DNA from: Escherichia coli | GTDB taxonomy: Bacteria; Pseudomonadota; Gammaproteobacteria; Enterobacterales; Enterobacteriaceae | Length of the DNA stretch: 39,681 bases | Strand: one strand, 5' to 3' | Assembly (NCBI RefSeq): GCF_003334815.1 | Contig: NZ_QOWO01000035.1 | In this document: piece by piece, positions 7,205-7,388 of the stretch | How positions within the stretch are numbered: the first letter of the stretch is position 1 | Layout of the letters: the number at the start of each line of letters is the position of its first letter | Program-made: the position numbers and the translations under genes | Notes under the pieces: model-generated | What the model was told of the DNA's origin: nothing | The model's input: the letters and a program-made list of their open reading frames with translations, nothing else | Database searches by the model: none

Positions 7205-7388
7205 AAATGTTGCCGTTCTGCCAACAGTTCCTGCCAGCATTCGGGCAACGAAGGGTTCTACTGGTGGATACACATACCAGGGGAATAAAGTCGTTTTAGC
7301 CTCTCCTTTAGTAATCACCGGGGGTAATGAAATCAGCATCTGCATCCCTCGTCATGCCAGCCATCAATTTCAGTTGCTTATGTCCTGA
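7205..7388 (-). ncRNA. gadF: gadE 3'UTR, possible 3'UTR-derived sRNA (GadF) ending at a hairpin plus U8
   Basis: A weak stem (tgttg…caaca, 7218-7236) is followed on the minus strand by eight U (complement of A-run 7210-7217), about 150-180 nt 3' of the gadE stop. I recall a gadE 3'UTR sRNA being reported; the boundaries here are my inference. Confidence 0.3.

Follow-up and report, generated by a model that had tools for sequence, protein, structure and literature searches.

A hairpin and U tract in the gadE 3'UTR of Escherichia coli, very probably a leaky terminator that makes the 3' end of the small RNA GadF

Introduction

The rplL-rpoB attenuator of the rplKAJL-rpoBC operon is an internal partial terminator. 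The site considered here lies between gadE and mdtE of Escherichia coli and carries a small RNA that has been described under two names, GadF and ES205. The name GadF comes from Melamed et al. 2016 (PMC5145812), who first classed the RNA as 'intergenic within transcript'. GadF is abundant in stationary-phase RIL-seq libraries, gives a band on northern blots and co-immunoprecipitates with Hfq; the GadF probe also detects full-length gadE transcripts, and a 5'-phosphate-dependent exonuclease depletes GadF, which argues for its processing from the gadE mRNA (PMC5145812). In the chimeras recovered in that study GadF was always the second RNA, as expected for an RNA that carries a terminator, and its overexpression raised the expression of acrB and cfa reporters (PMC5145812). 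Independent confirmation of GadF came from the northern blots and Hfq CLASH data of Iosub et al. 2020 (PMC7213987), in which the targets of GadF share the motifs CCAGGGG and CUGGUG. Activation of cfa was only about 1.2-fold in the work of Bianco et al. 2019 (PMC6755755), who saw no footprint on the cfa mRNA, so that the regulatory role of GadF appears modest or unsettled. ES205, a 72-nt transcript specific to Escherichia/Shigella, was derived from the RNA-seq data of Rau et al. 2015 (PMC4676190).

An original prediction, made from the letters of the DNA, had placed a short stem followed by eight U on the minus strand downstream of gadE and had proposed an attenuator or partial terminator that sets the ratio of gadE to mdtEF, the 3' end of a gadE 3'UTR sRNA (GadF), or both. 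Here, we compare this site with the published data and with its counterparts in other Escherichia genomes. The identity of the GadF 3' end is already known and is nothing new in terms of databases or literature.

Position and structure of the terminator

The window, that is, the whole stretch of 39,681 nucleotides analysed here (E. coli, contig NZ_QOWO01000035.1 of assembly GCF_003334815.1), carries a gadE-mdtE spacer that is 100% identical to that of E. coli K-12 MG1655 across the 361 nt compared, and this identity allows positions to be mapped between window and K-12 (window position = 3666282 - K-12 coordinate). The coding sequence of gadE, which encodes an acid-resistance transcriptional activator, occupies 7389..7916 on the minus strand, as given by the ORF list and by mapping of K-12 gadE (3658366..3658893), and ends with the stop codon TAG (7391-7389, ORF list). 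It is followed on the same strand by the proximal gadE 3'UTR, which lies 5' of the annotated GadF start (7291..7388, from the alignment), and by the 91-nt GadF small RNA (7200..7290; gadF, b4718), which is annotated in K-12 as the ncRNA 'small regulatory RNA GadF' at 3658992..3659082 (Melamed 2016, PMC5145812). Next come a spacer between the terminator and mdtE (7051..7199, minus strand), set apart by its composition, which mdtEF mRNA must cross, and the coding sequence of mdtE, the downstream gene of the gadE-mdtEF operon (5893..7050, minus strand; ORF list and K-12 annotation). The RNA sequence 3' of the gadE stop codon reads ...CGUUGCCCGAAUGCUGGCAGGAACUGUUGGCAGAACGGCAACAUUUUUUUUG. The Rfam covariance model RF02754 (ES205) matches the 3' 72 nt of GadF (7200..7271, minus strand) across model positions 1-72 of 72, with 105 bits, above the gathering score of 86, and E = 4.8e-19.

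Folding of the minus strand gives a two-tier terminator hairpin at 7209..7249, and the consensus structure of ES205 in Rfam is identical. Its outer stem of 6 bp pairs GUUGCC with GGCAAC (7249-7244 with 7214-7209) and is separated by a 4x4 internal loop from an inner stem of 9 bp (7239-7231 with 7227-7219), which includes three consecutive G.U pairs and is capped by an apical loop of 3 nt (7230-7228). A7208 forms a 1-nt gap between the outer stem and the U8 tract (7200..7207, minus strand), inside which both the mapped 3' end and the annotated end of gadF lie, the latter at the last U (window 7200). The predicted energy of the hairpin region is -20.5 kcal/mol for a 66-nt segment and about -19 to -20.5 kcal/mol overall. 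The original prediction of a hairpin and eight U on the minus strand therefore stands, with imprecise coordinates. The stem that it gave as 7218-7236 is roughly the inner stem and leaves out the outer stem (7249-7244/7214-7209), and it is the outer stem, not the inner one, that adjoins the U run. Similarly, the interval proposed was taken to start at 7205, so that half of the U8 tract, which reaches 5 nt further to 7200, fell outside it, and the distance given was 150-180 nt downstream of gadE, the hairpin starting 140 nt and the U8 tract ending 189 nt past the last base of the stop codon (7389). A bidirectional terminator was ruled out: read on the plus strand, the hairpin has an A8 run before it and no T run after it.

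Singly, the parts of this structure are unremarkable, but they stand out in combination. The window contains five T8 runs against 4.4 expected, so that the run alone is not unusual; the fold of the 66-nt segment has a z-score of -1.88, 12 of 200 shuffled sequences folding as well, and that of full-length GadF a z-score of -2.30. Yet among the 52 runs of at least six T on both strands of the window, none has a more stable hairpin upstream than the one at the GadF site (-20.5 kcal/mol), where the hairpin ends 1 nt before the run. The layout is thus that of an intrinsic terminator, a stable hairpin with G+C pairs directly followed by a U tract, though the stem is interrupted and includes three G.U pairs. 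A simple consensus terminator scan of the window did not flag the site, because of this interruption. A chance hairpin is ruled out by the database, Term-seq and conservation evidence taken together. Stable hairpins also end at two other T runs of the window, 1313-1320 and 25720-25726 (both on the minus strand; -17.6 and -18.4 kcal/mol, respectively), and these are likely, on their predicted folds, to be further intrinsic terminators.

The mapped RNA 3' end

A 3' end has been mapped to this U tract by Term-seq. Supplementary file 1 of Adams et al. 2021 (PMC7815308) places it at K-12 3659081(+), equivalent to window position 7201 and the seventh U, with the flanking sequence TCGTTGCCCGAATGCTGGCAGGAACTGTTGGCAGAACGGCAACATTTTTTTTGTCGTTGAC. 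The end is represented by 2,485 reads, a modest number, is classed as 'orphan' and occurs only in the M63 glucose OD 0.4 sheet, being absent from the curated LB OD 0.4 and OD 2.0 lists (PMC7815308). Its position inside the U tract is as expected for intrinsic termination. The original prediction had called for an end near 7205-7215, and the one found lies in the U tract, 4 nt outside that interval; together with the K-12 annotation (b4718) and the ES205 match it confirms the proposal that the feature is the 3' end of the gadE 3'UTR sRNA GadF. The TERMITe Term-seq supplements hold no entry for this coordinate, gadE or gadF, and the Rho-termination table of PMC7815308 has none nearby, the underlying experiment having been performed at LB OD 0.5, where gadE is poorly expressed.

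Taking the sequence, the predicted structure, the K-12 annotation, the 3' end mapped by Term-seq to the U tract and the published northern, Hfq co-immunoprecipitation and processing data together, we are confident that the feature is a Rho-independent terminator that makes the 3' end of GadF/ES205, an Hfq-binding sRNA from the gadE 3'UTR, and probably a leaky one that passes transcription on to mdtEF. That polymerases leak through the terminator, rather than bypass it by other means, and the degree to which they do so, are points that we infer.

Conservation across Escherichia

The 361-nt spacer is found at at least 95% identity in 5,412 of 5,426 complete E. coli genomes, and the hairpin and U8 tract show little or no variation across 5,400+ genomes of this species. 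No change occurs in the outer stem or the U8 tract between E. coli, E. whittamii and three more lineages of Escherichia, and for E. whittamii and the other three, folding predicts the same structure, with energies of -17.3 to -19.0 kcal/mol. In the Escherichia alignment, 14% of the columns are variable within GadF versus 58% in the 50 nt just downstream. The gadE 3'UTR before GadF (7291-7373, minus strand) has 18% variable columns and is nearly as conserved as GadF; it has no annotated function and includes the start of an open reading frame described below. Over the first ~25 nt past the stop codon of gadE, the clades cannot be aligned with each other. Across seven sequences, 20 of the 23 predicted pairs are invariant, two vary on one side (G.U to G-C and G.U to A-U), and three of the sequences have lost the remaining pair. 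Compensatory changes on both sides of a pair occur in 0/23 pairs of these seven closely similar Escherichia sequences, and covariation is uninformative here because the sequences are too similar.

The element was also looked for by a pattern scan of genome contigs with a 14-nt anchor, which returned 18 loci. Five of these are real (four from Escherichia and one from a contaminant contig), and the other 13 were rejected as chance matches in unrelated phyla. The type genomes of E. albertii, E. fergusonii and E. marmotae are not among the matches to the 14-nt anchor; either the element is absent from them or the anchor has diverged. The contaminant contig (locus L019; NZ_JARVKW010000110.1, 466 nt, coverage 1.1x) belongs to an assembly named 'Streptomyces sp. 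DH24', is near-identical to the gadE-mdtE spacer of E. coli and shares its A-loop allele with strain CD306. Contamination of the Streptomyces sp. DH24 assembly by E. coli DNA is almost certainly its source.

The length of the U tract is polymorphic. In 60 evenly sampled complete E. coli genomes, with allele lengths taken from alignment lengths, 56 have U8 and three have U7, and alleles of the U6 and U9 types can be deduced from predicted proteins of other assemblies. Homopolymer errors in assembly may account for some of these length alleles.

GadF as a regulatory RNA

GadF contains complements of both CLASH target motifs (PMC7213987). CCCCUGG (7277..7283, minus strand), the complement of CCAGGGG, is candidate seed 1 and is invariant in seven Escherichia sequences; CACCAG (7261..7266, minus strand), the complement of CUGGUG, is candidate seed 2 and is likewise invariant. 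In the predicted fold, the two seeds are paired with each other in a hairpin at the 5' end of GadF (7256..7285, minus strand) that joins CUGGU with ACCAG and UUC with GAA, and hence this helix would have to be opened for pairing with targets. All eight pairs of this 5' hairpin are invariant.

The 5' end of GadF differs by source, lying at 7290 for K-12 gadF and at 7271 for ES205. In Rau 2015 (PMC4676190) the start of ES205 is marked as falling on a transcription start site reported earlier; the authors of Melamed 2016 (PMC5145812), in contrast, argued for processing. A promoter scan of the minus strand from 7400 to 7290 gave no sigma70-like match. Through GadF, the central acid-resistance activator GadE is tied to post-transcriptional control.

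Readthrough into mdtEF

According to Deng et al. 2013 (PMC3708157), who cite Hirakawa 2006, mdtEF is co-transcribed with gadE as judged by RT-PCR, and binding of EvgA to the gadE-mdtE spacer has been reported. In their own work, a fusion of the spacer to lacZ gave no transcription under aerobic or anaerobic conditions (PMC3708157, data not shown). An mdtE promoter within the spacer was considered and not adopted, given that lacZ result (PMC3708157) and the lack of a consensus match, a promoter scan of the minus strand from 7200 to 7050 having found no sigma70-like sequence. Based on the co-transcription and the inactive spacer-lacZ fusion, the part of the original prediction that proposed a partial terminator setting the gadE:mdtEF ratio is plausible and a sound and reasonable inference. 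Incomplete termination would also agree with the irregularity of the stem, which has an internal loop and three G.U pairs and stands 1 nt away from the U run. A full-text literature search found no published measurement of readthrough or termination efficiency at gadE-mdtE.

We propose the following sequence of events. Transcription from the gadE promoters would run through gadE, and a fraction of the polymerases would stop at the hairpin and U8 tract, leaving an mRNA end at about 7200-7201. Endonucleolytic cleavage of the terminated gadE mRNA would then free GadF, which would retain the hairpin and a poly-U tail bound by Hfq and could pair with its targets via the conserved CCCCUGG and CACCAG. 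The other polymerases would cross the 149-nt spacer into mdtEF. The terminator would thus split transcription between gadE/GadF on the one hand and the efflux pump genes on the other, and since it lies upstream of the MdtEF multidrug efflux genes, its efficiency would bound the amount of pump mRNA made per gadE transcription event.

The spacer crossed by readthrough transcripts (7051-7199, minus strand) has 46 C versus 25 G (C/G 1.84), and 78-nt windows within it reach 35-37% C and 15% G. Such a composition is typical of Rho loading sites, and no other part of the region is as poorly conserved across Escherichia species as this spacer. As a speculation, this C-rich spacer would suit the loading of Rho on untranslated readthrough RNA.

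An open reading frame passes through the terminator. It spans 7345..7052 on the minus strand (97 codons), crosses GadF with its hairpin and U8 tract, and ends with a TAA stop codon 1 nt before the ATG of mdtE; a second ATG at 7339 is preceded by GAGG 7 nt upstream. The same frame is found at 4007-4309 in locus L015 and at 5935-6237 in locus L018. In E. whittamii, strain E69 and Escherichia sp. E1V33 it has 100 codons, owing to an in-frame difference of 9 nt. Gene callers seldom call this frame, and those that do start it at the ATG at 7339.

Alternative explanations

Term-seq cannot tell termination from trimmed ends, and the end at 7200-7201 could in principle be made by processing: polymerase would read through with high efficiency, 3'-to-5' exonucleases would trim the cleaved gadE-mdtEF RNA back to the hairpin, and the hairpin would be a stabiliser only. 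The modest read count at 3659081 and the irregular terminator stem would fit such a scheme, as would the 5' end of GadF, which is known to arise by processing. However, exonucleases usually trim as far as the base of a stem, and here the mapped and annotated ends keep 7-8 U beyond it. The placement of U8 1 nt past a G+C-closed stem is moreover the canonical terminator layout and is invariant in Escherichia, in contrast to the next 50 nt with their 58% of variable columns, and in RIL-seq chimeras GadF takes the second position, like other terminator-bearing RNAs. We therefore consider it extremely improbable that processing alone makes this end, and retain termination at the U tract. A second alternative accepts the terminator and makes it conditional. 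In this case a signal, such as ribosomes on the 97-codon frame, Hfq or another factor on the nascent RNA, would regulate the passage of polymerases and hence the gadE:mdtEF ratio. The anaerobic induction of mdtEF reported from the gadE promoters (PMC3708157) makes control of passage conceivable, and the position of the reading frame would fit it, for the frame crosses the hairpin and U8, stops next to the mdtE start and has GAGG before the start that gene callers use. It is also the sole open frame among the six, is open in five Escherichia lineages despite the 9-nt difference, and stays open in only 1.1-1.6% of trials in which alignment columns with the same reference base are shuffled (p about 0.011-0.016).

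Other properties of the locus speak against such a device. The fold of the 197-nt 3'UTR has no antiterminator helix or other competing helix; the terminator is kept in both the MFE and the centroid folds, and the z-score is -0.39. The variable columns of the frame are evenly spread over the three codon positions (27/26/31), and its dN/dS of 0.44-0.77 is barely lower than the 0.46-1.30 of the other frames. Furthermore, U7, present in 3 of the 60 evenly sampled complete E. coli genomes (~5%), breaks the frame, and alleles of the U6 and U9 types are also frameshifted. One ribosome-profiling supplement, that of Stringer et al., has no entry at K-12 36589xx or at gadE/mdtE, and the literature search found no paper describing control of this kind. 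The frame is probably fortuitous. It is very unlikely that it is translated; if it were, ribosomes behind the polymerase would melt the terminator hairpin, mask the C-rich spacer from Rho and shift the balance from termination and GadF to MdtEF readthrough, with termination-reinitiation at mdtE, and the sequence of the peptide itself would be immaterial. A regulated switch of any of these types is, in our estimate, very unlikely. As the predicted fold shows no alternative antiterminator helix, the claim of an attenuator in the sense of a regulated device is unsupported, while a leaky internal terminator remains the reasonable description of the site.

Neighbouring annotations

Antisense to GadF, at 7110-7388 on the plus strand (ORF 7092-7388), most E. 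coli genomes other than K-12 carry a PGAP annotation of a 'hypothetical protein' (WP_001205329.1, WP_001205317.1, WP_001205324.1). The call has a length of 279 or 330 nt and bears a frameshift flag in a U7 strain. Its frame is interrupted by 1-5 stops in the sequences compared, and the curated annotation of K-12 omits it. The call, which overlies an sRNA gene, is probably spurious.

On the other side of gadE, the ArrS sRNA (K-12 arrS, b4704) lies at 8228-8297 on the plus strand, antisense to the gadE 5'UTR, and its terminator-like hairpin (8267-8291) was flagged by the terminator scan. A very strong Term-seq 3' end with 982,952 reads lies at K-12 3657985, equivalent to window position 8297 (PMC7815308).

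Comparison with known systems

The site agrees with GadF (gadF, b4718)/ES205 in its location between gadE and mdtE, its strand, its hairpin and its U8 tract and is the same locus; the sequence shows no differences, and the two sources diverge in the 5' end alone (7290 vs 7271). GadF resembles the processed type II 3'UTR-derived Hfq sRNAs, such as CpxQ from cpxP (per Melamed 2016, PMC5145812) and SdhX and MicL (per Iosub 2020, PMC7213987), in being an mRNA 3' end that is freed by endonucleolytic cleavage. Like these, it uses the parental terminator and poly-U as the Hfq-binding module and shares a stress pathway with the protein encoded upstream. In contrast to them, the GadF terminator is located inside an operon (gadE/mdtEF) and not at its end, and hence expression of the genes behind it requires readthrough. 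In this respect the site is comparable to the rplL-rpoB attenuator, where a hairpin and U tract also lie between co-transcribed genes and lower the level of the distal transcripts, an effect that would hold for the GadF site as well. However, the two differ in that the terminated product at the GadF site also yields a trans-acting sRNA.
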